A stretch of DNA of 64,000 nucleotides, taken from the NCBI GenBank assembly GCA_015257665.1, contig JABZJS010000001.1, forward strand, positions 155,526 through 219,525, read 5' to 3'. The notes under the pieces are model-generated. The model did not search any database, had not been told where the DNA came from, and was given only the letters and a program-made list of their open reading frames with translations. The DNA comes from Candidatus Nanosynbacter sp. (lineage in GTDB: Bacteria; Patescibacteriota; Saccharimonadia; Saccharimonadales; Saccharimonadaceae). Made by a program: the position numbers and the translations under genes. Positions 18,697 to 64,000 of the stretch are shown piece by piece; position 1 is the stretch's first letter; every line of letters begins with the position of its first letter.

Positions 18697-19683
18697 CTAC
18701 TCAGACGCAGACATTGCTTCGTGCCACTGACGGATAATCCGCCGCGCTTCATCCGTGCTGGTGGTATGCATCAGCTGGTCGCGCAGCTCCTTCGCGCCGT
18801 CAAAGTCGCGAATGTAGATCTTGTAGAAGCGTTTGAGCGTCTCGTATGGCCGGCCCAGTGTTGGTTGCCAGTGGTCGAAGACATCGAGGTGGTAGTGAAG
18901 GAGTGCGAAGTTGCGCTGCGCCATAGAGCTACTGCCCTGCGCTACACTATCGGCACGCGGCGCAAAGCAAAATGGATCGGCAAACACCCCACGGCCAATC
19001 ATCAGGCCATTAACGCCCGGGTGGGCGGCTACCAGTGCCATGCCATGCGCCCGATCACGAATATCGCCATTGATAGTGAGCAGCGTCTGCGGCGCAATCG
19101 CATCGCGCAGCGCCACGATATCATCAATCAGCTCATAGTGCGCCGCTACCTTGCTCATCTCCTTCTTGGTACGCAGGTGAATAGTCAAGTTGACGATATC
19201 TTGCTGGAGCAGTGTCGTGAGCCACGCTCGCCACTCATCCACAACACTGTAGCCAAGGCGGGTCTTAACGCTGACTGGCAAGCCAGCCGTCTTGGCCGCG
19301 GCAATAGCGGCTACTGCAACGTCTGGATTGCGAATTAGCGCCGCTCCCCCACTCTTGATAGCACTCTTTGCAGGGCAGCCCATATTAATATCGATCCCTG
19401 CAAAGCCCAGGCGCGCGCAGTGCTGGGCAAATTGCTCCATATCGCCTGGCTCGCCGCCCCAAATCTGCGCTACCAGGGGGTACTCGTCGTCCGTCTTAAT
19501 GAGCCGGCCAGCAATTGCTCTGTCACCAGCGTGTACCCAGCCCGTCGCATTAGCAAACTCAGTAAAAAACACATCGGGCGCACCAGCCCGCTCCACCACG
19601 TGGCGAAATACCACATCCGTCACCGCCTCCATCGGTGCCAAAACAAAAAACGGCTGCGGCAAATCATTCCAAAACGACGTCAT
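18697..19683 (-). CDS. dus: tRNA-dihydrouridine synthase
   Basis: 328 aa; LAPMEAVTDVVFR...IDINMGCPAKSAIKSGGAALIRNP (catalytic Cys context) and the TIM-barrel Dus pattern. Confidence 0.9.
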   Translation of the reverse strand: MTSFWNDLPQPFFVLAPMEAVTDVVFRHVVERAGAPDVFFTEFANATGWVHAGDRAIAGRLIKTDDEYPLVAQIWGGEPGDMEQFAQHCARLGFAGIDINMGCPAKSAIKSGGAALIRNPDVAVAAIAAAKTAGLPVSVKTRLGYSVVDEWRAWLTTLLQQDIVNLTIHLRTKKEMSKVAAHYELIDDIVALRDAIAPQTLLTINGDIRDRAHGMALVAAHPGVNGLMIGRGVFADPFCFAPRADSVAQGSSSMAQRNFALLHYHLDVFDHWQPTLGRPYETLKRFYKIYIRDFDGAKELRDQLMHTTSTDEARRIIRQWHEAMSASE

Positions 19684-19858: not shown

Positions 19859-19957
19859 CTGGGATGGCAGGAGTCGAACCTGCGACGAGAGCCCTCACAT
19901 GCCTGTCGCCATTGACAAGCAAACCTCTCGTACCCCTATACCAAACGGGGCATCCCA
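19859..19957 (-). ncRNA. tRNA-like structured RNA (canonical T-arm plus 7-bp acceptor stem, but non-canonical D and anticodon regions)
   Basis: RNA 5'-TGGGATG...ACGAGAG...[hairpin CTTGTCAATGGCGACAGG]...CTCTCGT-GCAGGTTCGACTCCTGC-CATCCCA-G; T-loop GGTTCGACTCC; no 8-9 spacer; 43-nt elaboration where the anticodon arm should be. Confidence 0.35.
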
Positions 19958-20487
19958 GGTTGGTCACCATTGACCAACCATTCCTTACAAAAACTCAAGC
20001 CGGAGCAGATCCGGCGAGTTCCTTGTAAGGATAGAGATAATTGTAATCTACTTGGGCGAGGCTGTCAAGTGGTAGCTCACTAAAGCTGGCTGGCGTATCG
20101 CAGTCTTGCGTTGGTGTGCTCCATTCCCCTTGTGATGGTATACTCAATCAGCTTTGCACACGTGCAAGTATATATTCTCAAGAAAAGGAAGAAGCTCCTA
20201 CCTCAACGCATGATGCGGATGCAGGAGCTCGGGAGAGACTACAAGCGGTTCTGCTCGTCCTGGCCGGTAGCCAGGGCGCGAGTGAATCTCGCGAGTCTCA
20301 CGTGTTTTAAAGAAGCCTCCGTGGCAGGTGCACGGTGCGCGGCAGTGAGACGCACAGCATGAGATTTCTCGATCGTTGCCTCCAAGTGGCAACGATACCG
20401 CCTACCCCCCTTGATGTCCGATAAAGGGTAACCTGCGGCGGTTGCTATGGCAATGCTCTACGCGAAAAACGGAGCATTCGCCAGTAG

Positions 20488-20563
20488 CGGAGATAGCAGG
20501 AATCGAACCTGCACCTCTATGTGAGCTAACACATAAAGGCAAAAGGGGGACCACCCCATCTCC
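20488..20563 (-). ncRNA. tRNA-like structured RNA (second copy of the same architecture)
   Basis: RNA 5'-GGAGATG-GGGGTGGTCCCC-...CTTTATGTG-TTAGCTC-CACATAGAG-GT-GCAGGTTCGATTCCTGC-TATCTCC-G; T-arm nearly identical to the upstream element; 9-bp anticodon-like stem; no canonical D-stem. Confidence 0.35.
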
Positions 20564-20652: not shown

Positions 20653-20820
20653 CTACCGACCGTTTGGTCGGCCGCAGGCACAGACATAACCTGTACCATT
20701 ACACGTGGCACAGGCGGATTTGAAGGAAAAAGAAGGCCCTTTTTCCTTTTTACTGCCCCTGCAGGAGGGGCAGATCTTTGTGCCGGTATAACCGTTACCG
20801 GCACAGACCTTACAGGACAT
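20653..20820 (-). CDS. Small DnaJ-type zinc-finger protein (4x CxxCxGxG repeats)
   Basis: 55 aa MSCKVCAGNGYTGTKICPSCRGSKKEKGPSFSFKSACATCNGTGYVCACGRPNGR; RBS GGAGG 10 nt upstream; preceded by a consensus promoter. Confidence 0.55.
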   Translation of the reverse strand: MSCKVCAGNGYTGTKICPSCRGSKKEKGPSFSFKSACATCNGTGYVCACGRPNGR

Positions 20821-20957
20821 GAGGTATTCACCTCCTCTCTGCCGAAGTTTCGGCAAAGACATCGGTGAACCCTTTTTTCAAGGACGCTCTCGTGCTGAGC
20901 GTCTCGAGATAGCTACATCGGGTAGCTACCAGGGTTCACTCAGTTTCGAGCTGTTAC

Positions 20958-20988
20958 TATATATACCAATATACGGCGAGCCTGTCAA
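20958..20988 (-). promoter_or_regulatory. Near-consensus sigma70 promoter (-35 TTGACA, 17-bp spacer, -10 TATATA), copy 1 of a repeated cassette
   Basis: Minus-strand TTGACAggctcgccgtatattggTATATA; the same architecture and spacer core occur at 30054-30082 and 46546-46574. Confidence 0.5.
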
Positions 20989-47695: not shown

Positions 47696-48029
47696 AAGAT
47701 AAAATCCTTTCTTTGGAGTTGTAATACCTATGCACACCGAGAAGGAGTGCAGTATTACTGGTTTGTTGTTGTATCCGACCGCGTTGTTAATGTCCGACAT
47801 ATGCCGCAAAAAAATCGCCTCTGCACGATTGCAAAGACGAGTCTCGAGTTTCGTACTAAAACGCTAGCGCAAGAGGCTAAGGCGTATCCGAAATTCCCTC
47901 GGTAGCATACTTATCGACTGCTTTGTCGTACATAACAGCCCGCTACGGTCTTTGGCAATGTCTGGAGAAGATTATAGCAGATGGTGGTGGGTGGATGCAA
48001 GGTGTGGAGTGGCTTTAGATAAGCAGGCT

Positions 48030-55645: not shown

Positions 55646-57607
55646 CTATAATAAGAGACGTTGTCGGGGTGTAGCGCAGCTGGTAGCGCGTACGGCTGGG
55701 GGCCGTGAGGTCGCAAGTTCAAGTCTTGTCACCCCGACCATTGAGTCAACACTCAAACCCACGTCATGGAAGCCCCATGACGTGGGTTTTTGCTTGTTTT
55801 TGCTGGGTTTTGGGGCAGGAAGGCCATCATCTGGCAGACCGTACAAGCCTGGCCCTTCTGACACCGAGACGACGATGTCACTTGGCTGGCTCAATGTGAC
55901 TTCGTCGTCTCCAGAGGCTTCCAGGCTGTCGCCATCTCCTACCTCCACACCCTCTTTGCTCAGGCACGGCTCTCCTCCTCTCACCCCCAGCACCCCATCA
56001 AACGGTGGCTGGTAGCGCACCATCGCAGTGAGCAGCCCAGTCTCGTCGTCTGGTGTGATGTACACCTTGTCGAAGAGCACCTGGTTGAGCATGCGCCGGA
56101 TGTGCTCAGGAGCCTGCCGGTAGGCGGTGGCCATGTGCTGGGCAATATCTAACGCTTGCCCGACCAAGGCCTGCCGCTCTGTCATCTCACCCTCCAGCCC
56201 CGTCATCTGCCGCTCCACACCGCACAGCTCACGGCTTATCCGGCTTTGCTCACGCTTGAGGACGTCAAGCGGAATGGCGTCGGCGTAGTGAGCTTGGAGG
56301 AGCTTGTCTCGCTCCCGTTCGAGCCGTCGCCGCACGGTCTTCGCTTCCGTCAGCCGCTGAGTCGACTCTGCTACCAGCATGGCCACCTGCCGCTGCAGGG
56401 CGGTTTCGAGGACAGCTCGCTGCCCAGGCCGCAACGCCACTCGGTCGTAGAGCCGGACGATCTCATCCTCAATCTGCTCCGCCAACGTTGCCCGAAACAA
56501 GCACTGCGGCTGCTTCTTGGAGTGCCGCCCCAAGCAGACGAAGTACTCATACACCACACCGCGGGGCTTCACATTCGTCACGATGAGACGGGAACCACAG
56601 ATCCCGCAGTAGATCGTCGACTTCAGGTAGTGCGCGTGCTTGACCGTCCGCTCACCGTTGACGCGGGTGGCCAGCAGCGTCTGCACCGACTCGTACGTCG
56701 CCCGATCCACCAAGGGCTCATGGCTCCCGGCATAGTGCACCCCTTGGTAGACCACCTCACCGACGTAGAAGGGATTGTGGAGCACCTTGCTGAGTAGCTG
56801 CACCGTCACCGGCTTCTCCGGCAGTGAGGCGGTCGGCACGGTGGTCAGGCCGCGCAGCGTCAACTCTTCGGCCAAGCGCCTGAGCGTCCACTCCCCACTG
56901 GCGTAGGCCGCAAAGGCCCAGGCCACCAGCGGCCCACGTACCTCATCCACCACCACAATGCGCGCCTCCTGGCCATTCTTCGTCGTGATGACGTTGCGGT
57001 AACCCAGCGGTGCTCGGCCGATGCAGCCACCACCCCGCACTTTCTCAGCCATGCCTTTCTTCACCTCATTGGAGAGGTTCTTGGAGTAGAACTCAGCGAT
57101 ACTGGCCATAATGCCGTGAACCAGCAGCCCACCGGGCGTCTGATCGATATTCTCGCTGGTCGACACCAGCCGAACGCCGAGCTCATCGAAGCGTTTACCC
57201 AAGGTGGTGTCGTCGTAGCGGTTGCGCACCAGGCGGTCGAGTTTGTGGACGATGACGTAGTCGACCGGCCGCCCCGACCGAGCCTCCTCCTCCAGGTAGG
57301 TCAGCATCGCCTGGAGAGCCGGGCGCCGCGTGGTAGTGGCGCTGACACCACCTTCGGTGAACTCCTTGCCGATGATGGCGCCGATGCTCATCGCCTTGCG
57401 CTTGTTGGCCGACCGCTGGGCCGGGATGGAGAAGCCCTCCTCACGGCCGCCCCGCCGGGCCTGCTCGCGGGTAGAGACGCGCAGGTAGGACACGGCGCGC
57501 CGGGGAGTCAGCTCCTGGGCCAGCTGCTCGGCCGAGTTTTGGATGGTGGGAGAAGGGGCGGTAGCGCGCCCTGTTGCTCCATAATTAGGTGATAGCGTAT
57601 TGCTCAT
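55646..57607 (-). CDS. Large serine recombinase (integrase of the tRNA-Pro-inserted element)
   Basis: 653 aa; N-terminal resolvase domain AVSYLRVSTREQ (catalytic Ser), recombinase domain, zinc ribbon CGICGSRLIV...CLGRHSKKQPQC and coiled coil. The 3' end of the ORF runs through the tRNA-Pro sequence, consistent with integration into the tRNA 3' end; ~65 % GC. Confidence 0.9.
   Translation of the reverse strand: MSNTLSPNYGATGRATAPSPTIQNSAEQLAQELTPRRAVSYLRVSTREQARRGGREEGFSIPAQRSANKRKAMSIGAIIGKEFTEGGVSATTTRRPALQAMLTYLEEEARSGRPVDYVIVHKLDRLVRNRYDDTTLGKRFDELGVRLVSTSENIDQTPGGLLVHGIMASIAEFYSKNLSNEVKKGMAEKVRGGGCIGRAPLGYRNVITTKNGQEARIVVVDEVRGPLVAWAFAAYASGEWTLRRLAEELTLRGLTTVPTASLPEKPVTVQLLSKVLHNPFYVGEVVYQGVHYAGSHEPLVDRATYESVQTLLATRVNGERTVKHAHYLKSTIYCGICGSRLIVTNVKPRGVVYEYFVCLGRHSKKQPQCLFRATLAEQIEDEIVRLYDRVALRPGQRAVLETALQRQVAMLVAESTQRLTEAKTVRRRLERERDKLLQAHYADAIPLDVLKREQSRISRELCGVERQMTGLEGEMTERQALVGQALDIAQHMATAYRQAPEHIRRMLNQVLFDKVYITPDDETGLLTAMVRYQPPFDGVLGVRGGEPCLSKEGVEVGDGDSLEASGDDEVTLSQPSDIVVSVSEGPGLYGLPDDGLPAPKPSKNKQKPTSWGFHDVGLSVDSMVGVTRLELATSRPPAVRATSCATPRQRLLL
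55665..55740 (+). tRNA. tRNA-Pro (anticodon GGG), CCA encoded
   Basis: Acceptor CGGGGTG/CACCCCG, D-arm GCGCAGCTGGTAGCGC, anticodon loop CTGGGGG, T-loop TTCAAGT, 3' ACCA. Confidence 0.8.
55757..55795 (+). terminator. Rho-independent terminator after tRNA-Pro
   Basis: aaacccacgtcatgg / ccatgacgtgggttt hairpin followed by ttgcttgtttttg. Confidence 0.55.
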
Positions 57608-57781
57608 TGTTTACTCCTTTCATAGTAGGTAATGTTGATTCACTTCGCTCTTTCTAGTAACGCTCCACATCGAGAAAATGTCCAGTCATCACACCGATAT
57701 CACCACACATTCACACGAGACACCGAGAGGGAGGCACTATAGGTAATTGACAGCCACCAACTCAAAGGATACACTTATAGT

Positions 57782-58162
57782 ATGCGTAAATCTCATAGGT
57801 CACACCAAGATGCTCGGCCATCATGTTCCTCTCGCCACGGTGAGTGCTATACCGAACAGCCGGAGGTTGGTGCTACGATCGGGCGCCATGCCGTAGATCT
57901 CGCATCTCCGGACAGCACAGGAGCGACAAGCACAGCCACAGAAACAACCAAGGACGCTGTCACCACGATGGACGCTGAAGCAACGCCTTCCACCACCCCT
58001 GAGGAGTGGGGTAAGCTAACCGAGGAATTCACAGTAACCCTGCACGGCAAGGTTATCCACGCTTTAGTGTACTCGCGCCCTTATGACGACAGATGGACTT
58101 TGTTCACAACTGTTGATGCAGAAACCAATCAGGTCATCAACGCCGAAGTCTCTCTAACGTAG
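57782..58162 (+). CDS. Hypothetical protein (low-GC cargo gene 1)
   Basis: 126-aa ORF (possibly shorter, from MDAEATPST); GC clearly lower than the flanking element. Confidence 0.35.
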   Translation: MRKSHRSHQDARPSCSSRHGECYTEQPEVGATIGRHAVDLASPDSTGATSTATETTKDAVTTMDAEATPSTTPEEWGKLTEEFTVTLHGKVIHALVYSRPYDDRWTLFTTVDAETNQVINAEVSLT

Positions 58163-58179
58163 CCATTCCATCTTTTCTG

Positions 58180-59130
58180 GTGAGGCCTATGACGTCTCAA
58201 GATGATGCAATCGATACCGACCGCCCACCACCCCCTCTTTCTTATCGAATCCCTGCCGCCATTCTCGAATTCATCGGATATTCATCTGCGTTCGTAACGA
58301 TTCTCGGCTATTTTATTGGCCCATTTCCTGAGATTATCCCTCCTCCATGGCGAATCCCCTTAGTGGTTGTCGGGTTCTTGGCTGTGTTGGTCGCCGCATC
58401 GATCACTTCCGCACGAGCCACAACTCGCTACCTATCGCATTTCGACGTTTCTCTCGCCAAGCATCTCGATGATTTCAAAAGCGATGTTGGCAACGCGCTT
58501 GAAGAAGCGACATCCGTGCAAGCGAACGCCGAGGCCATGCGCGCTGCCGGCAAAGAAATTTCCTCGCTCACACACGACCTTCAGAAGTCAGCATTCAAGA
58601 TCAGCAATTCCGACAATCCTCGCGAGTACGCTCGCAATCAGATCCACCAAGCACTCACTCGGTTCGCCCGCACCTATAGCCGTTTGAGCGGGCACGAGAT
58701 GAGAGCTTGTATCAAGATCATCAAGACCGACGACAAAGGCAAACGCGTCGCCGTCACGCTTGCGCGAAGCAACACCACCTTGCTGGACGATGACGAGTAC
58801 AACCTCATCACGCACAACACCGATTTCAAAGCGATCAGTGCTGGTCAGCTGACGTGGCACTCCTCCTCGGTCTCCACCGAGAACGACTACCAAAACTCCA
58901 GCCCGAACCGGCAGTACGAATCTGTTCTCGTCTGGGGGATACGCGATATCGGTAGGCCGCCGCCTACAGATTCCCTTGTCGGCTTCCTCTGTCTCGACTC
59001 AGTCGACGCCGGCGCGATAGACCCAGACAGAGATGCACCTTTCGGCTGGTGGTTCATTGATGCCTTCCGGGCGTTGTGCACGAATGCTCCCGACTCTGTT
59101 TTGGACATCACGTTGTCAAAGAACGATTAA
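58180..59130 (+). CDS. 2-TM membrane-anchored hypothetical protein (low-GC cargo gene 2)
   Basis: 316 aa; two N-terminal TM helices followed by a ~240-aa soluble domain; no recognisable catalytic motif. Confidence 0.5.
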   Translation: MRPMTSQDDAIDTDRPPPPLSYRIPAAILEFIGYSSAFVTILGYFIGPFPEIIPPPWRIPLVVVGFLAVLVAASITSARATTRYLSHFDVSLAKHLDDFKSDVGNALEEATSVQANAEAMRAAGKEISSLTHDLQKSAFKISNSDNPREYARNQIHQALTRFARTYSRLSGHEMRACIKIIKTDDKGKRVAVTLARSNTTLLDDDEYNLITHNTDFKAISAGQLTWHSSSVSTENDYQNSSPNRQYESVLVWGIRDIGRPPPTDSLVGFLCLDSVDAGAIDPDRDAPFGWWFIDAFRALCTNAPDSVLDITLSKND

Positions 59131-59137
59131 CGGTACT

Positions 59138-59935
59138 TCATGTACTCACCGCCCCATTCCGTATCGTCTCCCCGATCTGCTGGTTAGTGATGACAGCGAA
59201 AAGCGCAGCGGGTAGGCGTTGGTCGCTGGCGATGACGCGGCGCAGCTGCTGGCAGCGCGTAGCGCTTGGCACCACCCACAGCACGAGTGGAAAGACACCG
59301 CAGGCTCGCTGCTCGGCCCCACTGGCGTAGTAGGCGGCGTAGCGCTGGCAGGCAGTCAGGACACGGGCGGGGTTCTCGGTGTCGCGGTCGACCTCGATGA
59401 AGTAATGGTCGTCGTAGTGCGGGCTGGTGACGACGGCGTGCAGGTCGGGCCGCAGGGTGAGCTGCTGCCCAGCCGGCCCCAGGTAGGAGCGCCAGCAGCC
59501 TGGCTCGGTGGTGATGGCGGCACTGGCGTCCGTCATGGAGCGAGCGGTCTCGGTTATCTGCACACTGGTCTCGGTGATCGCCAGCAAATGAGCCAAGAAG
59601 CTGATGGACAGGCTGCGCGGGCGCTGCCGACTACGGCTGCCGGTTTGCACGCGGCGCCCACGAGTCGTGAGCGTCCAGATGGAGACGGTAGAGCCGCCCT
59701 GCCAGCCGCCAACCCGTCGCTCCAGGCGGGTGACCAGGTCGTACTCCTGCAGCCGCGCTAGGTGGCGCAGCGTCTGCCGGATAGCGGAGGACAGCGAGCC
59801 ATAAGCCTCAGCTGTCAGGCGGGCCAGCTGGGTCGTCGTCGCGAAGCGGTAGGTGGCCAGCAGCGCCAGGAGCCGATGCGCCGCGGGGTGGTCGCAGGCA
59901 TGGGGAAGATGCTGTCTCATGGTGTCCTCCTCCAT
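59138..59935 (-). CDS. Putative replication-relaxation family protein (winged-helix N-terminus)
   Basis: 265 aa; LLALLATYRFATTTQLARLT...LARLQEYDLVTRLERR pattern typical of plasmid/ICE replication-relaxation proteins. Confidence 0.4.
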   Translation of the reverse strand: MEEDTMRQHLPHACDHPAAHRLLALLATYRFATTTQLARLTAEAYGSLSSAIRQTLRHLARLQEYDLVTRLERRVGGWQGGSTVSIWTLTTRGRRVQTGSRSRQRPRSLSISFLAHLLAITETSVQITETARSMTDASAAITTEPGCWRSYLGPAGQQLTLRPDLHAVVTSPHYDDHYFIEVDRDTENPARVLTACQRYAAYYASGAEQRACGVFPLVLWVVPSATRCQQLRRVIASDQRLPAALFAVITNQQIGETIRNGAVST

Positions 59936-60110
59936 GGTTCGTCCTTCTCCCCCACGGGCCAGTGGTGACGCCAGAACATGGGGTCAGTCACCGCCACTGC
60001 TCGGCCGTATGCCGCGCTATGGCGGGCATTGGTGGCTCGGCTCAGGCCAGCGATCCGTCTGCCGAACCGTCGTGCCAGGCGTCCTGCGAAGGCGGTGCGA
60101 AGCAACGGCA

Positions 60111-62249
60111 TCATCGCCGCCTCCGGCCGATTGGGCTGTCGTTATCCGTCGCTGATGTAGGTGCGCTGGTAGACGTCGATGAGGTGAGGGCGAGCAGCGC
60201 CTGCTCGGTCTGCTCTGCCGGTACGCCGTAGCGCGCGTGGCTGGCGGCATAGAGGGTGGCTGGGTCACGGCGCCGTGCGGCCGCCGGCTGGGTGGTGAGC
60301 GAGAACCAGTCGCTGCGCTGGCCGCGCTGCATCAGCTGGGCGTAGGCGTGGAAGGCGGGCAGCAGCTGGAAGTCGACCGCCTCCAGCTCGGGCGCCAGGC
60401 GGGCGGCCGCCGCGGCGTCGGTGCCTGAGAGGCCGAAGTACAGCTTGTTGCGCGCATTGCTCTCGATCGCCTGCACCATCGCGGGCGACAGCTGCGCGCG
60501 GTACTGATGCGCCAGGTGGAAGGCCCCGCCCAGCGAGCGGGCCTGGGCCAGCGCTTCTGACAGGTCATGCGGCAAGCCACCGATGAACTCATGCGCCTCG
60601 TCGATGAAGATGCTGACGATGTGGCGCTGCTCTGGCGGCAGAGATTGGCGGGCCAGGAGGAGCGTCCACAACTGCGACACCAGCAAGGTACCCAGCAGCC
60701 GGGCTGCACCCGCCCCGAGCAGGCCACGGTTGAGATTGACGACGACGACGCGCCGCCGGGTAAAGAGCTCTGCCAAGTCGAAGCGCGGCTGCGCTTGCCC
60801 CAGCACGGCGCGCAGATAGGGACGCAGGATGAGCTGGCGCAGCTTGTTGAGCACTGGCGCGATCTCCGTCGCTTGCGCCTCCGGTTTCTTGGCGTTGTAG
60901 GCCGCCCAGAAGGCGCCGGTGCCCAGTGGATCGTCCGGCACCTGAGCCAGCACCCACCGGCGAAAGGCCGGATCCGTCAGCAAGGGCGGCAGCCACAGCA
61001 GCGTCGCCTGCGGTAGGCGGACCAAGGTCAGCAGCGCGGCAGATAGGACATCAGCGGTGCGAATGCCCCAGTGCTCGCGAAACAGCGCCTCAAAGGTGCT
61101 CAGCATCGCCTCTGCCGTGACGGGTGCCATCTGAGGCGGCCCGGCCAGCGGATTGAGGCCAACTGGTGCTGGGTTGCTTGGGTCAATCACCACCACGTCG
61201 CGCTGGCGCTGCTCGGGCAGGCGGGCGAGAAAGTCCGTCGCCAGGTCACCCTTAGGGTCGATCAGGAGCAAACCCCGGCCCTGCGCGGCGTCGGCCAGAG
61301 CCAAGGCCAGCATGACGGTGGACTTACCAGCCCCAGTCGGCCCCAGCAGGTGTGTGTGGTAGGCGGCATCGACGATGGCGATCCCTACTGGCTGCGCCTG
61401 GCCAGGCGCGCTGGTCATACCCACCACGCGACGCCGCTCCAGCAGTGGTGTCGACGGCGGCAAACGGCGCGGATGCAGGCTGCCCAGCAGCGGCAATGGC
61501 GCCTCACCGATCGGCCAACCAGTCAGTGCGGCCAACCGACCAGAGCGCAGGCGCAGGGGCCAGCACCAGGGGCGACGGGCCTCATCGATCTTGTCTGTCG
61601 CCTCAGCCACCAGCCGGACGGACGACTGCGCGGTCTCCACCAGGCGCAGCGCCCCAAGCAGCTGAGCAAAGCGCTGGTGTGCCTCAGCACTCGGCCCGCG
61701 ATAGCCGAGCCGGAGGCAGACGGCGGCGCCATGCTGCTCATCGGCTGGTTTGCTGGCGCGGGCGGGCGACTGTGCCGCGTCGTAGCCGACCAGCAACTGC
61801 CGCCAGAGCGAGGGCGGCGGCGTCTCCGCCAAAGAGGCTGGACTGAGTCGGCGCCCCACCAGCAGTTGCAGCACTACCTGCTGCGAACCCGTCAGGCCAG
61901 AAAGGGCAGCATAGAGGGCGCGCACCGCCGCAGTAACGCGCTCGGGCAGGTGACTGACCTGCCGCCCCCGTACCATCACGCGCACCGCCCGCGTCATGGG
62001 CAGGCGCGGCTGCTCGGGTCGGTGCAAGCGTGCCGGCAGGTGATTGCTCAGCAGCGCCGCCAGGCCGGGCCGGCCAGTTTGCGTGCCCACCAGCCAGTGC
62101 GCACCACTGGCGTCGGCGCGCAGCTCCAGCACCAGTGGCCCCAATTCCGTCGCCGTCGTCAGGCGCTCCAATGCCGTGGTGGCCAGTGCTGGGCTGATTG
62201 GGCTGTCCCAGGCCAGCTCCTGCCACTGCCACTGCCGGTGCCCGGTCAT
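60111..62249 (-). CDS. Type IV coupling-protein-like ATPase (VirD4/TraD/TraG family)
   Basis: 712 aa; Walker A GPTGAGKST, LLIDPKGD motif, Walker B region IFIDEAHEF, C-terminal TraD-like HLAHQYRAQLSP. Confidence 0.65.
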   Translation of the reverse strand: MTGHRQWQWQELAWDSPISPALATTALERLTTATELGPLVLELRADASGAHWLVGTQTGRPGLAALLSNHLPARLHRPEQPRLPMTRAVRVMVRGRQVSHLPERVTAAVRALYAALSGLTGSQQVVLQLLVGRRLSPASLAETPPPSLWRQLLVGYDAAQSPARASKPADEQHGAAVCLRLGYRGPSAEAHQRFAQLLGALRLVETAQSSVRLVAEATDKIDEARRPWCWPLRLRSGRLAALTGWPIGEAPLPLLGSLHPRRLPPSTPLLERRRVVGMTSAPGQAQPVGIAIVDAAYHTHLLGPTGAGKSTVMLALALADAAQGRGLLLIDPKGDLATDFLARLPEQRQRDVVVIDPSNPAPVGLNPLAGPPQMAPVTAEAMLSTFEALFREHWGIRTADVLSAALLTLVRLPQATLLWLPPLLTDPAFRRWVLAQVPDDPLGTGAFWAAYNAKKPEAQATEIAPVLNKLRQLILRPYLRAVLGQAQPRFDLAELFTRRRVVVVNLNRGLLGAGAARLLGTLLVSQLWTLLLARQSLPPEQRHIVSIFIDEAHEFIGGLPHDLSEALAQARSLGGAFHLAHQYRAQLSPAMVQAIESNARNKLYFGLSGTDAAAAARLAPELEAVDFQLLPAFHAYAQLMQRGQRSDWFSLTTQPAAARRRDPATLYAASHARYGVPAEQTEQALLALTSSTSTSAPTSATDNDSPIGRRRR

Positions 62250-62486
62250 GACGCCCCTCCATCTGCCCTGTTAGCTGCGGAGTCATTAGCCGCGTCATCA
62301 ACCTCATCGTCATCCGGTAGCGTGGTTTTCTCATCCCGTTGCTGCTCCAGCCGTTGCAGCATGAGCAGCAGCAAGACCCGTGCCAATGCATCGGCGTCCA
62401 GCTCGCTGCGCCAGGACGGCACCGCGCGGTAGTGCGGCCGTCCCTGGTCTCGTCGCTTGCGGCAGGTCATAGCCGCCTCCGATCCA

Positions 62487-62675
62487 TCACCAGCGCTGGC
62501 GATACCAACGCCACACGGCAACTAGCAGCGCCACCACACCGGCCAGGGCCAGCACCCACCAGTAGCGGCAGAGCAGCTCGACCGCCCAGATCAGCAGCAC
62601 CACGCCACCAAAGACGTACACGCAACTGCGGAAGAAGCGCGCCGCCAGCGACCCCATGCCGATTCCATCTCGCAT
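62487..62675 (-). CDS. Small membrane protein
   Basis: 62 aa, 2 TM. Confidence 0.3.
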   Translation of the reverse strand: MRDGIGMGSLAARFFRSCVYVFGGVVLLIWAVELLCRYWWVLALAGVVALLVAVWRWYRQRW

Positions 62676-62696
62676 CAGTCAGTCCTCTCATCGCTC

Positions 62697-63407
62697 TCAT
62701 GACGTGCCCTCCTCGCCAGCGGCATCCATAGCGTCTGTTTCATCGTCAGCCGGAGCCAGCGCCGCCTGCGGCCACTGCCGATCGCTCGGCACGCGGTAGC
62801 CCCAGCGGGCCAGCGAGATGGTCGAGGCGCATTCGTCGCCCCAGATGTCCCAGTGCTGGCGCGATGGCGCCGCCCGGCGGGCGAACAACTCCACAAAGGG
62901 CCCGTTGCCCACCAGTCGCTCGACGATCTGGTGGATCTCCTCCGGCTTGTGCGAGTGCTCCTGCAACGGGTGGAAGCCCCAGTTGGGCTGGGCCCGAAAG
63001 GCCACCCGGGTACCCTGTCCCCGCACGCCCAGCAACAACAGCTCGCCGGCGTTACGGAAGGTGTGCCCCATGGAGAAGCGCGGCTTGGCCCAGAAGTAGA
63101 AGCTGGTGTAGCGGAAGCCCCAGGCCTCCAGCAGCTCGATCCCCTGCGGCACTGTCGCCGTAGTCACCCAGACGAAGCAGAACGAGCGCGGCGCCGTTAT
63201 CTCCCGCACTGCCTCACCCATGGCACGCAGCCGCGGCAGCGGCATCAGGCGGTAGTGCTGCGCCGCCCCGTGACGCCCCATCTGCTGGCTGCACCACGGC
63301 GGATCGGCCAGCACCGCTCGGAACGTCCCACGCTGCGGCGCCCCATCTGCCTGGTTATGCGTGGCGTGCGATTGGCTCGCCAGCGCGTGATTTGTCAGAT
63401 TGCTCAT
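62697..63407 (-). CDS. MT-A70-family N6-adenine DNA methyltransferase
   Basis: DPPW catalytic motif (LADPPWCSQQMG) and MT-A70-like downstream blocks. Confidence 0.7.
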   Translation of the reverse strand: MSNLTNHALASQSHATHNQADGAPQRGTFRAVLADPPWCSQQMGRHGAAQHYRLMPLPRLRAMGEAVREITAPRSFCFVWVTTATVPQGIELLEAWGFRYTSFYFWAKPRFSMGHTFRNAGELLLLGVRGQGTRVAFRAQPNWGFHPLQEHSHKPEEIHQIVERLVGNGPFVELFARRAAPSRQHWDIWGDECASTISLARWGYRVPSDRQWPQAALAPADDETDAMDAAGEEGTS

Positions 63408-63695
63408 TACGATCCCTCCTTTGCGCGCTTATCTGCTATTTGTGTACGCGTACAAAACGCGCTCACACTCCCCATTACGAACCGATTTGCTCGATTTGTG
63501 AACCCCCTCGCCAGCCACAACTCCCACCGACGCGACACGCCACCAGCGATGTGCCGTTCTGGGGTGGCACCACAGAGAACAAAATGGACACGAAGGCCAA
63601 ATAGTGGCGGCGAAAATACATGCTGTAGTTATTGCAACAGGCAGCCAGGTCGGCCCGCACATGGCAATGTGGAGCGCGAATCAGCTGGGCGTCTG

Positions 63696-63977
63696 TCAGC
63701 ACGAGCTGTTCGCGCCGCCTGGCTCGTCCTTGCCGTTGGCGGCCTCTTCAGGCTCCGCAGCCGCCTCCTGCGCCCGCCTCGTCATCGCCACGGCGCTGTG
63801 GAAGGCGGCCAGGTCGTGGGCCTGCTTGGTGGCGATGGCCTGCTGCCAGGCGTCGGTCTGGGCGCGGGTGGTTGTGGTGGGCGAAGTGTCGTCGCGCCAG
63901 ACCGCCCAGGCCAGCAGGGCGATGGCGATGAGCGTCAGGCAGCCGACGAAGGCCAGGCCATTGATGATCCAGCTCAT
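63696..63977 (-). CDS. Small membrane-anchored protein
   Basis: 93 aa, N-terminal TM. Confidence 0.3.
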   Translation of the reverse strand: MSWIINGLAFVGCLTLIAIALLAWAVWRDDTSPTTTTRAQTDAWQQAIATKQAHDLAAFHSAVAMTRRAQEAAAEPEEAANGKDEPGGANSSC

Positions 63978-64000
63978 GGTGGGTATGTCCTTTCTGGTGA

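Follow-up and report, generated by a model that had tools for sequence, protein, structure and literature searches.

Processing signals in the shape of a tRNA are well documented in organelles and eukaryotic nuclei, while bacterial ones are known mainly as RNase P sites dispersed over mRNAs. In plant mitochondria, the t-elements are non-canonical cloverleafs that were found by screening for the pseudouridine-arm motif GGTTCRANYCC, one of them having a perfectly conserved pseudouridine arm, and their ends match mRNA termini, as the source of which cleavage by RNase P or RNase Z was inferred (Forner et al. 2007, PMC1920247). Such t-elements are thought to define the ends of neighbouring RNAs and to release a small stable tRNA-like RNA. 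The bacterial Y RNA YrlA and the mascRNA of MALAT1 are likewise non-decoding mimics of the acceptor, T-arm and D-loop that are handled by tRNA enzymes. The present work concerns two tRNA-like elements, here called elements 1 and 2, on the minus strand of a 64,000-nucleotide stretch of DNA from Candidatus Nanosynbacter sp. (contig JABZJS010000001.1), which is referred to as the window. They lie in a 1.66-kb gap without a long open reading frame (ORF) between an upstream gene for an AddA-type helicase-nuclease (addA) and the tRNA dihydrouridine synthase gene dus. It is well supported that they belong to a tRNA-derived, Saccharibacteria-specific family in which the upper half of the tRNA is retained and the decoding half is lost. 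A clade of ultra-small bacteria of the candidate phyla radiation (CPR) thus keeps tRNA-derived elements without an anticodon at one locus and under strong selection, and literature searches on tRNA-like elements in Saccharibacteria, Patescibacteria or CPR bacteria yielded no relevant description.

The first-pass annotation of this DNA had recognised two minus-strand elements, each with an acceptor stem of 7 bp and a canonical T-arm, and both are confirmed by the sequence and by minimum-free-energy (MFE) folds (Table 1), which also reproduce the aberrant D and anticodon regions that it described. Unconstrained MFE folding recovers both structures, with z-scores against shuffled sequences of -3.3 for element 1 and -5.1 for element 2. 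In element 1, the acceptor stem UGGGAUG/CAUCCCA (19957-19951 with 19866-19860), which may be extended by an eighth pair between C19958 and the discriminator G19859, is abutted directly, without the spacer of positions 8-9, by a hairpin in the D position (CCCC-GUUUGGUAUA-GGGG, 19950-19933) with a loop of 10 nt. The anticodon arm is replaced by an extended arm of 47 nt (19931-19885), in which a 7-bp stem bears an inner hairpin, and the T-arm reads GCAGG-UUCGACU-CCUGC (19883-19867). Element 2 has the acceptor stem GGAGAUG/UAUCUCC (20563-20557 with 20495-20489), followed, again without the 8-9 spacer, by the short hairpin GGG-UGGU-CCC (20556-20547), an 11-bp hairpin with the loop UUAGCU in place of the anticodon arm (20540-20513), the T-arm GCAGG-UUCGAUU-CCUGC (20512-20496) and the discriminator G20488. 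The D-position hairpins of both elements contain GG, and the distance from the acceptor strand to the T-arm is 45 nt in one element and 68 nt in the other. The T-loop motif GGTTCRANTCC has only two matches in the 64 kb, both of which are these elements, where 0.12 would be expected by chance. The encoded 3' tails, GCUA and GCCG, hold no CCA, while the genuine tRNA-Pro of the window (55665-55740) does encode CCA; the 3:70 pair is G3:C70 in element 1 and A3:U70 in element 2, and G73 is found in both. The pair, described as tandem, is not strictly so: the two are some 530 nt apart, with a terminator and a strong promoter in between.

Canonical tRNAs (Rfam RF00005) have in common with both elements the 7-bp acceptor stem, the 5-bp T-stem with a UUCRANY-type loop, here UUCGANU, and the purine discriminator. 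Both elements lack, unlike canonical tRNAs, the 8-9 spacer, a D-stem of 3-4 bp with a G18-G19 loop, a 5-bp anticodon stem with a 7-nt loop carrying U33 and R37, an anticodon that is conserved in relatives, and an encoded CCA. At default settings, including the tmRNA (transfer-messenger RNA) search, ARAGORN called neither element, the tRNA-Pro being its only call in the window; at the Rfam gathering thresholds, that of RF00005 included, only the tRNA-Pro was accepted as well. Calls of both elements as ordinary cloverleafs, which the first-pass annotation had named as its own refutation, were thus not obtained, and the finding was not refuted. At permissive thresholds the elements score 25.6 bits against tRNA-Sec (RF01852, threshold 47) and 24.8 bits against tRNA (RF00005, threshold 29), and no Rfam family covers them in either type of search. 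Under relaxed settings, ARAGORN read element 1 as SeC(tca) and element 2 as an undetermined tRNA, and the calls with and without intron were mutually inconsistent. A tRNA that contains an intron was also considered and rejected: ARAGORN with the option -i was silent at its defaults, and the relaxed calls disagreed with each other. A tRNA-Sec, for which an 8/5 or 9/4 arrangement, a 6-bp D-stem, a long variable arm and UCA are expected, falls short at 25.6 of the 47 bits needed; in the alignment the D-stem columns are non-canonical, 43 nt stand against the 19 of the model, and the variable-arm stem that follows is mostly deleted.

A kinship with tmRNA or Y RNA, to which the first-pass annotation had likened these elements, is not supported. 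With the tRNA-like domain of tmRNA they share an upper half of acceptor and T-arm and the replacement of the anticodon stem by another helix; moreover, smpB is present in the window, as had been noted, and one related class of elements combines G3:U70 with A73. However, the window elements have no mRNA-like region, tag reading frame or pseudoknots and no G3:U70, and their acceptor strands are some 45-70 nt apart. Neither ARAGORN at its defaults nor Rfam finds a tmRNA, permuted forms included, and the tmRNA calls of relaxed ARAGORN are spurious, with implausible tags such as VREVCLSMATGM*. Y RNAs gave no Rfam match, and neither a TROVE/Ro nor an RtcB domain was found in the neighbouring genes and large ORFs that were scanned, which did not comprise every ORF of the window. 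The topology of YrlA is the opposite of that seen here, its ends forming the Ro-binding stem at the position of the anticodon stem, and it is encoded beside rsr/rtcB. The elements do have the hallmarks of t-elements: a non-canonical cloverleaf with a conserved T-arm, situated beside other RNAs inside what is predicted to be a longer transcript. It is well supported that they are tRNA-derived, non-decoding mimics of the tRNA upper half, and not tmRNAs, Y RNAs, tRNA-Sec or divergent tRNAs.

We infer that the elements are a bacterial counterpart of the plant mitochondrial t-elements and that t-elements and mimics of the mascRNA type are their closest functional relatives. As with t-elements, they are tRNA-derived non-canonical cloverleafs that would lie inside longer transcripts by mRNAs, and the same T-arm motif picks them out of the window; as with mascRNA, excision by RNase P and RNase Z would define the end of a neighbouring RNA. 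Unlike the organellar plant elements and the eukaryotic mascRNA, the Saccharibacteria family is bacterial and its cleavage a prediction, and it differs from t-elements in occupying one locus, in its clade-wide conservation and in having allelic variants of the body, the part between acceptor and T-arm.

The extent of the family was determined in 80 genome loci, comprising 26 genomes with a Dus that is 91-96% identical and 54 Nanosynbacter-like genomes with 70-81% identity. These Dus relatives place the host in Candidatus Saccharibacteria (TM7), which agrees with the CPR-like host suspected in the first-pass annotation; the conservation in related genomes that it had recommended to examine is extensive. 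tRNA-like elements occur on the dus strand of the same addA-dus gap in about 70 of the 80 genomes, and nearly all loci have the T-loop motif upstream of dus. A strict scan, which demanded a canonical T-arm and a fully paired 7-bp acceptor, detected 95 elements, every one of them on the dus strand, and a single element in shuffled sequence, while the opposite strand gave none; all of the elements fall within the gap, and relaxed criteria pick up most of the remaining loci. Element 1 is conserved in all 26 close relatives that cover its position. Elements were also found in the metagenome relatives L081, L083, L084 and L095, and they span Dus identities from 96% down to 62%, the latter in a soil relative. 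The family is confined to one Saccharibacteria subclade, because relatives with 52-54% Dus identity have no element. Within one genome, the two elements carry the same T-stem (GCAGG in the close clade, L001-L026; GCGGG in L027, L032, L041, L043 and similar loci) and different acceptor stems, which suggests gene conversion or a common binding partner.

Purifying selection on the upper half is apparent from the nucleotide diversity (pi) among 21 close genomes, which amounts to 0.009 for the upper half of element 1 and 0.030 for that of element 2, against 0.221 at four-fold degenerate sites of dus and 0.034 at its codon positions 1 and 2. Since these values lie at or below those of codon positions 1 and 2, the upper half is under strong purifying selection at the RNA level. 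The acceptor stems vary by lineage and stay paired, as in GGAGAUA/UAUCUCC, UGGGAUG/CAUCCCA, GGACAUA/UGUGUCC, GGGUGUG/CACAUCC, GGGCGCG/CGCGCCC, GGGUAUG/CAUGCCC and CGGGAUG/CAUCCCG. Among 24 distinct upper halves, nine of the 12 pairs show compensatory double changes, and 98.6% of the cells are paired, compared with 41-57% when the partner strand is slid; the paired fraction is partly circular, as pairing was demanded by the scan, whereas the compensatory pattern at equivalent gap positions is not. At the 3' end, all 105 elements have a purine at position 73 and C at position 74, and 104 of the 105 have a pyrimidine at position 75; the sequence is variable from position 76 onward, and many members encode a GCCA or ACCA tail. 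G-U pairs are found at most positions of the acceptor, without special enrichment at 3:70.

These patterns bear on two explanations in which the elements would have no function as RNA. They might be decaying tRNA pseudogenes, as the family grades into nearly canonical forms: the elements of L028 and L031 score 64-65 bits against the Rfam tRNA model, with an anticodon-position loop CCAAAAG that has C33. Moreover, ARAGORN places a gene for tRNA-Phe(GAA) some 20 nt upstream of dus in L103 (41% Dus identity); the anticodon stem of this gene, CUCGC/GCGAG, is that of the L028 element, and its T-stem, read by eye, has one U-U mismatch. This gene is a lead, short of proof, that the family could descend from a real tRNA gene at this site. 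Loss of all present function is nevertheless very unlikely in view of an upper-half diversity that is 7- to 25-fold below neutral, of compensatory changes that maintain the stems, and of a persistence over Dus identities from 96% to 62% in very small, streamlined genomes. Conservation at the DNA level, with the 3' halves serving as attachment or recombination sites for cassettes or mobile elements, would suit the behaviour of the small ORF (sORF) upstream of element 2 and of the element 2 body, both of which act like exchangeable cassettes between conserved flanks, and an integrated element does seem to adjoin the genuine tRNA-Pro of the window. Such a role is highly improbable, however: the 3' strand covaries with the 5' acceptor strand at a distance of 23-74 nt, a pattern for which RNA pairing is the only explanation; no exact match to either 3' half was found in 2.9 million viral contigs, and there is no recombinase gene near the elements.

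The lower half presents the opposite picture, with bodies that range from 23 to 74 nt across the family and a D-arm that is the least conserved part of the elements. In nearly all elements the fold is a three- or four-way junction that includes a short hairpin containing GG and, in the place of the anticodon arm, a closed hairpin of 4-12 bp. L027 and L084 have canonical acceptor, D and T arms and a capped anticodon stem, the cap in L084 being a GAAA tetraloop, and other forms include triloop hairpins, elements without a D-arm and a 58-nt form without an anticodon arm. Some relatives retain U8-A9, the D-arm and a variable loop of 4-5 nt, and pass the Rfam tRNA threshold; the missing spacer and D-stem, prominent in the first-pass annotation, are therefore a property of the window elements and not of the family. 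This natural series begins with near-canonical tRNA, ends with a bare minihelix and reveals the parts that a tRNA can do without. In the close clade, element 1 has a conserved body except for a variable insert, and its D-position loop has a conserved U-rich UGG motif. Element 2, in genomes with a Dus that is about 95% identical, has at least three unalignable body forms (58-61, 69-72 and 72-75 nt); their divergence far exceeds that of neutral sites and implies either that alleles were replaced by recombination or that selection is unusual.

As the loop at the anticodon position differs between close relatives or is absent, the elements are considered not to decode. ARAGORN assigns to the gap elements of relatives Ser(cga), Val(gac), Arg(tcg), SeC(tca), Glu(ctc), Phe(aaa), Trp(cca), Lys(ctt) and an undetermined tRNA with a 4-base anticodon, with anticodons at odd positions (28-37). 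Tools of this type thus report members of the family as tRNAs with odd anticodons (Phe-AAA, SeC-UCA or the 4-base one), an annotation risk that could mislead the inference of codon usage or genetic code in CPR genomes. The suggestion that the elements are divergent but genuine decoding tRNAs of a CPR host may draw on other translational oddities of CPR genomes and on the relaxed ARAGORN calls for the window elements, but its probability is close to negligible, given anticodon-position stems that are elaborated or extend to 10-11 bp, below-threshold scores, and a putative anticodon that changes or vanishes between close relatives. The first-pass judgement that these are not decodable tRNAs stands, while its suggestion of divergent tRNAs has to be dropped.

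The class of explanation with the best support is its remaining suggestion, that of tRNA-derived regulatory RNAs or processing signals. Within it, we tentatively prefer, at a little under an even chance, the reading that the elements are cleavage signals for RNase P and RNase Z, exapted from tRNA remnants, that punctuate transcripts. RNase P, RNase Z and the CCA-adding enzyme all have the acceptor/T-arm minihelix as their minimal substrate. The elements would act as built-in cleavage signals because their upper half is the part that tRNA end-processing enzymes recognise, and the variety of the lower half would follow from its being free to drift or to be replaced. Moreover, both elements stand at borders between units that are conserved separately: element 2 has the sORF on one side and a structured RNA on the other, and element 1 is flanked by dus and by a promoter and its leader. 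The 5' cut at each element would be made by RNase P, and the cut behind the discriminator by RNase Z or a similar 3' nuclease. In this way, cutting at element 2 would part the zinc-finger mRNA of the sORF from the downstream structured and three-way-junction RNA, element 1 would be excised from the dus leader, and each cut would free a small stable tRNA-like by-product. R73, C74 and C75 reportedly pair with the GGU of the P15 loop of bacterial RNase P RNA, a pairing that is credited to Kirsebom and Svard in 1994. The conserved R73-C74-Y75 could be the partners of that loop in the present family, with wobble pairing possible for U75. The reading offers a testable model of transcript punctuation in small, reduced genomes.

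The predicted organisation of the gap (Table 1) consists of two minus-strand transcription units. Unit A would comprise, in this order, a promoter, a structured 5' untranslated region (5'UTR), the sORF, two hairpins, element 2, a structured RNA, a three-way junction and a terminator-like hairpin; unit B would comprise a promoter, a hairpin leader of about 75 nt, element 1, three hairpins and dus. The predicted transcript start of the unit B promoter lies some 75 nt upstream of element 1, and transcription from it would read into dus.

The proximity to dus raises the possibility of a cis-regulatory mimic, in which the fold in the dus leader is bound by Dus, or by some other factor that binds tRNA, and dus expression is thereby placed under feedback. 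A tRNA-like element stands some 180-550 nt upstream of this tRNA-modifying gene throughout the clade, element 1 falls within the predicted dus leader, and its UGG-containing loop occupies the D position. Against such feedback, a strong terminator followed by a conserved -10-like sequence, TGTGATAAAAT, separates the element from dus in most distant relatives, and the unit of sORF, tRNA-like element, junction and terminator remains intact in L030 and L075 despite whole genes inserted before dus. In addition, the D-arm, which is the substrate site of Dus, is the region that varies most, and element 2 and dus are about 800 nt apart, with a terminator between them. We consider this explanation distinctly unlikely.

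Several observations weigh against cleavage signals as the whole explanation. A hairpin abuts the 5' end of element 1 (GGUUGGUCA-AUGG-UGACCAACC, the second in the leader), which is not ideal for RNase P, and the body of that element is itself well conserved in the close clade. L027, L028 and L084 retain a fully canonical D-arm, core and variable loop; a canonical core exceeds the needs of a bare cleavage signal and hints at a role for the whole L-shape. Furthermore, the class with the acceptor GGGUGUG/CACAUCC combines G1:C72, G2:C71, G3:U70 and A73, the identity set of AlaRS, and its G3:U70 persists through a compensatory change at 4:69; the presence of this alanine set (G3:U70 with A73) in one class fits an acceptor-end function better than a cut site.

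These points suit a trans-acting role, possible but doubtful in our estimate, in which the released RNAs are matured, CCA-tailed and perhaps aminoacylated, and act via their acceptor end or elbow. They could be donors of amino acids for non-ribosomal use, or could act on tRNA-binding proteins or toxins as decoys or sponges, the loss of the anticodon keeping them off the ribosome. The sealing of the anticodon stem by stable caps (GAAA, triloops) where the rest is canonical, as in L084 and L027, agrees with such a role, as do the GCCA and ACCA tails encoded in many members and the alanine-type class. The allelic bodies of element 2, with their divergence above neutral, could likewise reflect diversifying or balancing selection. 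On the other side, the window elements have no G3:U70 and end in GCUA and GCCG where the tRNA-Pro of the same genome has CCA, position 3:70 is not specially enriched for G-U, no aminoacyl-transferase gene is nearby, and no body feature is common to all classes, as a common trans partner would require. A more specific proposal is improbable: the elements would be dedicated non-decoding acceptor RNAs that are excised, receive a CCA tail and, in the G3:U70/A73 class at the least, are charged with an amino acid. With the capped anticodon stem keeping them off the ribosome, they would work as amino-acid donors in a non-ribosomal process or as decoys for toxins or enzymes that target tRNA, and conflict-driven or balancing selection would maintain their allelic lower halves in these epibiotic bacteria. 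If the RNAs do act in trans, they would represent a new kind of non-decoding tRNA relative.

Table 1. Positions of the tRNA-like elements, of the parts predicted for the two transcription units, and of relevant genes in the window.
Feature	Position	Strand	Basis or remarks
tRNA-like element 1 (nearest dus)	19859..19957	minus	sequence and MFE fold
tRNA-like element 2 (distal)	20488..20563	minus	sequence and MFE fold
dus, tRNA dihydrouridine synthase, closest to DusB	18697..19683	minus	starts 176 nt downstream of element 1
Predicted leader, promoter to element 1	19958..20032	minus	long hairpin CCUUACAA...UUGUAAGG; read from sequence
Unit B promoter, sigma-70 type, TTGACA-17-TACAAT, 11/12 consensus	20040..20068	minus	promoter scan; 87-92% conserved in close relatives
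Intrinsic-terminator-like hairpin and U-run	20180..20230	minus	ends the sORF/element 2/junction unit; read from sequence
Three-way-junction RNA motif	20235..20299	minus	P1 GAGACU/AGUCUC; P2 CGCGAG-AUUCA-CUCGCG; P3 variable
Structured ORF-free RNA	20300..20487	minus	76-96% identity per 25-nt bin, mostly at least 90%, in close relatives
sORF, 55 aa, DnaJ-type CxxCxGxG zinc-finger repeats	20653..20820	minus	behind the ribosome-binding site (RBS) GGAGG, upstream of element 2
Putative unit A promoter: TTGACA (20988-20983), 17-nt spacer, extended -10 TGG-TATATA (20968-20960)	20960..20988	minus	read by eye
smpB	2151-2627	minus	in the window

The unit A promoter is missing from the promoter scan, the last base of its -10 being A, and the region is 94-97% conserved. 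Both promoters share an extended context at the -35 (20983-20988 and 20063-20068, minus strand), TTGACAGGCUCGCC and TTGACAGCCUCGCC, which suggests a duplication or a site for a common regulator. The 5'UTR of the sORF (about 20826-20950, minus strand) is conserved and structured, as is the RBS conserved, and its segment GGGUUCACC could pair with the upstream GUGAACCC or with GGUGAA beside the RBS.

The sORF itself is hypervariable and cassette-like among relatives. At least three to four unrelated allelic families occur (DnaJ-type CxxCxGxG, two zinc-ribbon types and one non-zinc type), and they recur in both close and distant genomes. The type of sORF does not correlate with the type of element 2 body, the two assorting independently. 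A weak NCBIfam match of the sORF product to anti-TRAP reached 22 bits against a cutoff of 65.

The structured RNA downstream of element 2 is conserved among close relatives to a degree that resembles coding DNA, and the fold of 20190-20487 has a z-score of -4.3; sequence similarity was detected only within the close clade and not in Nanosynbacter-like loci. The resemblance of CAGAACCGCUU to conserved region V of RNase P RNA prompted the consideration of this RNA of about 290 nt as a reduced form of the latter. This identity is rejected: there is no Rfam RNase P match at E <= 10 and no GGAAAGUCC-like strand, and the RNA is unconserved beyond the close clade.

The three-way junction is found exactly in all close loci that cover the site and with at most two substitutions in most distant loci; its P1 covaries, and the 15-nt joining strand GAGCAGAACCGCUUG is invariant. 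In Nanosynbacter-like genomes the motif ends some 30 nt before the dus start codon. The segment of junction and terminator (20180-20299, minus strand) has equivalents at 3866-3985 of L074 and 3864-3981 of L027, and in distant loci the equivalent hairpin is called as a terminator of 12-13 bp. The junction, which has no Rfam match, looks like a small RNA or a riboswitch-type leader. Pairing of GAGCAGAACCGCUUG with the T-arm (GAACC with GGUUC) was rejected, as the strand is invariant while the 5' strand of the T-stem varies (GCAGG, GCGGG, GAGGG, ACGGG) without covariation. A role of GAGCAGAACCGCUUG as the seed of a small RNA was also rejected, there being no complementary site of at least 11 nt elsewhere in the window.

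The genes inserted between the unit of tRNA-like element and junction and dus are located at 3075-3995 in L075 and 3345-3989 in L030. One encodes a 306-aa protein with a Fic-type motif, HPFSDGNGRTGR, that was spotted by eye, and the other a 214-aa protein with a hydrophobic C-terminal stretch. The two insertions appear to mark the gap before dus as an insertion hot spot.

Elsewhere in the window, a large serine recombinase gene abuts the genuine tRNA-Pro in the region 55646-64000. The block after the recombinase has a GC content of 63-69%, compared with about 52% elsewhere, and encodes a Replic_Relax relaxase-like protein, a TraG/TrwB-type coupling protein and an MT-A70 methyltransferase. The region probably represents a mobilisable or conjugative element that has integrated, and an actinobacterial (host-like) source would agree with its GC content. 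Finally, at positions 47800-47973 (minus strand) Rfam gives a match for the leader of ribosomal protein L10 that stays below the threshold (38 against 44 bits) and is probably a divergent but genuine L10 leader.

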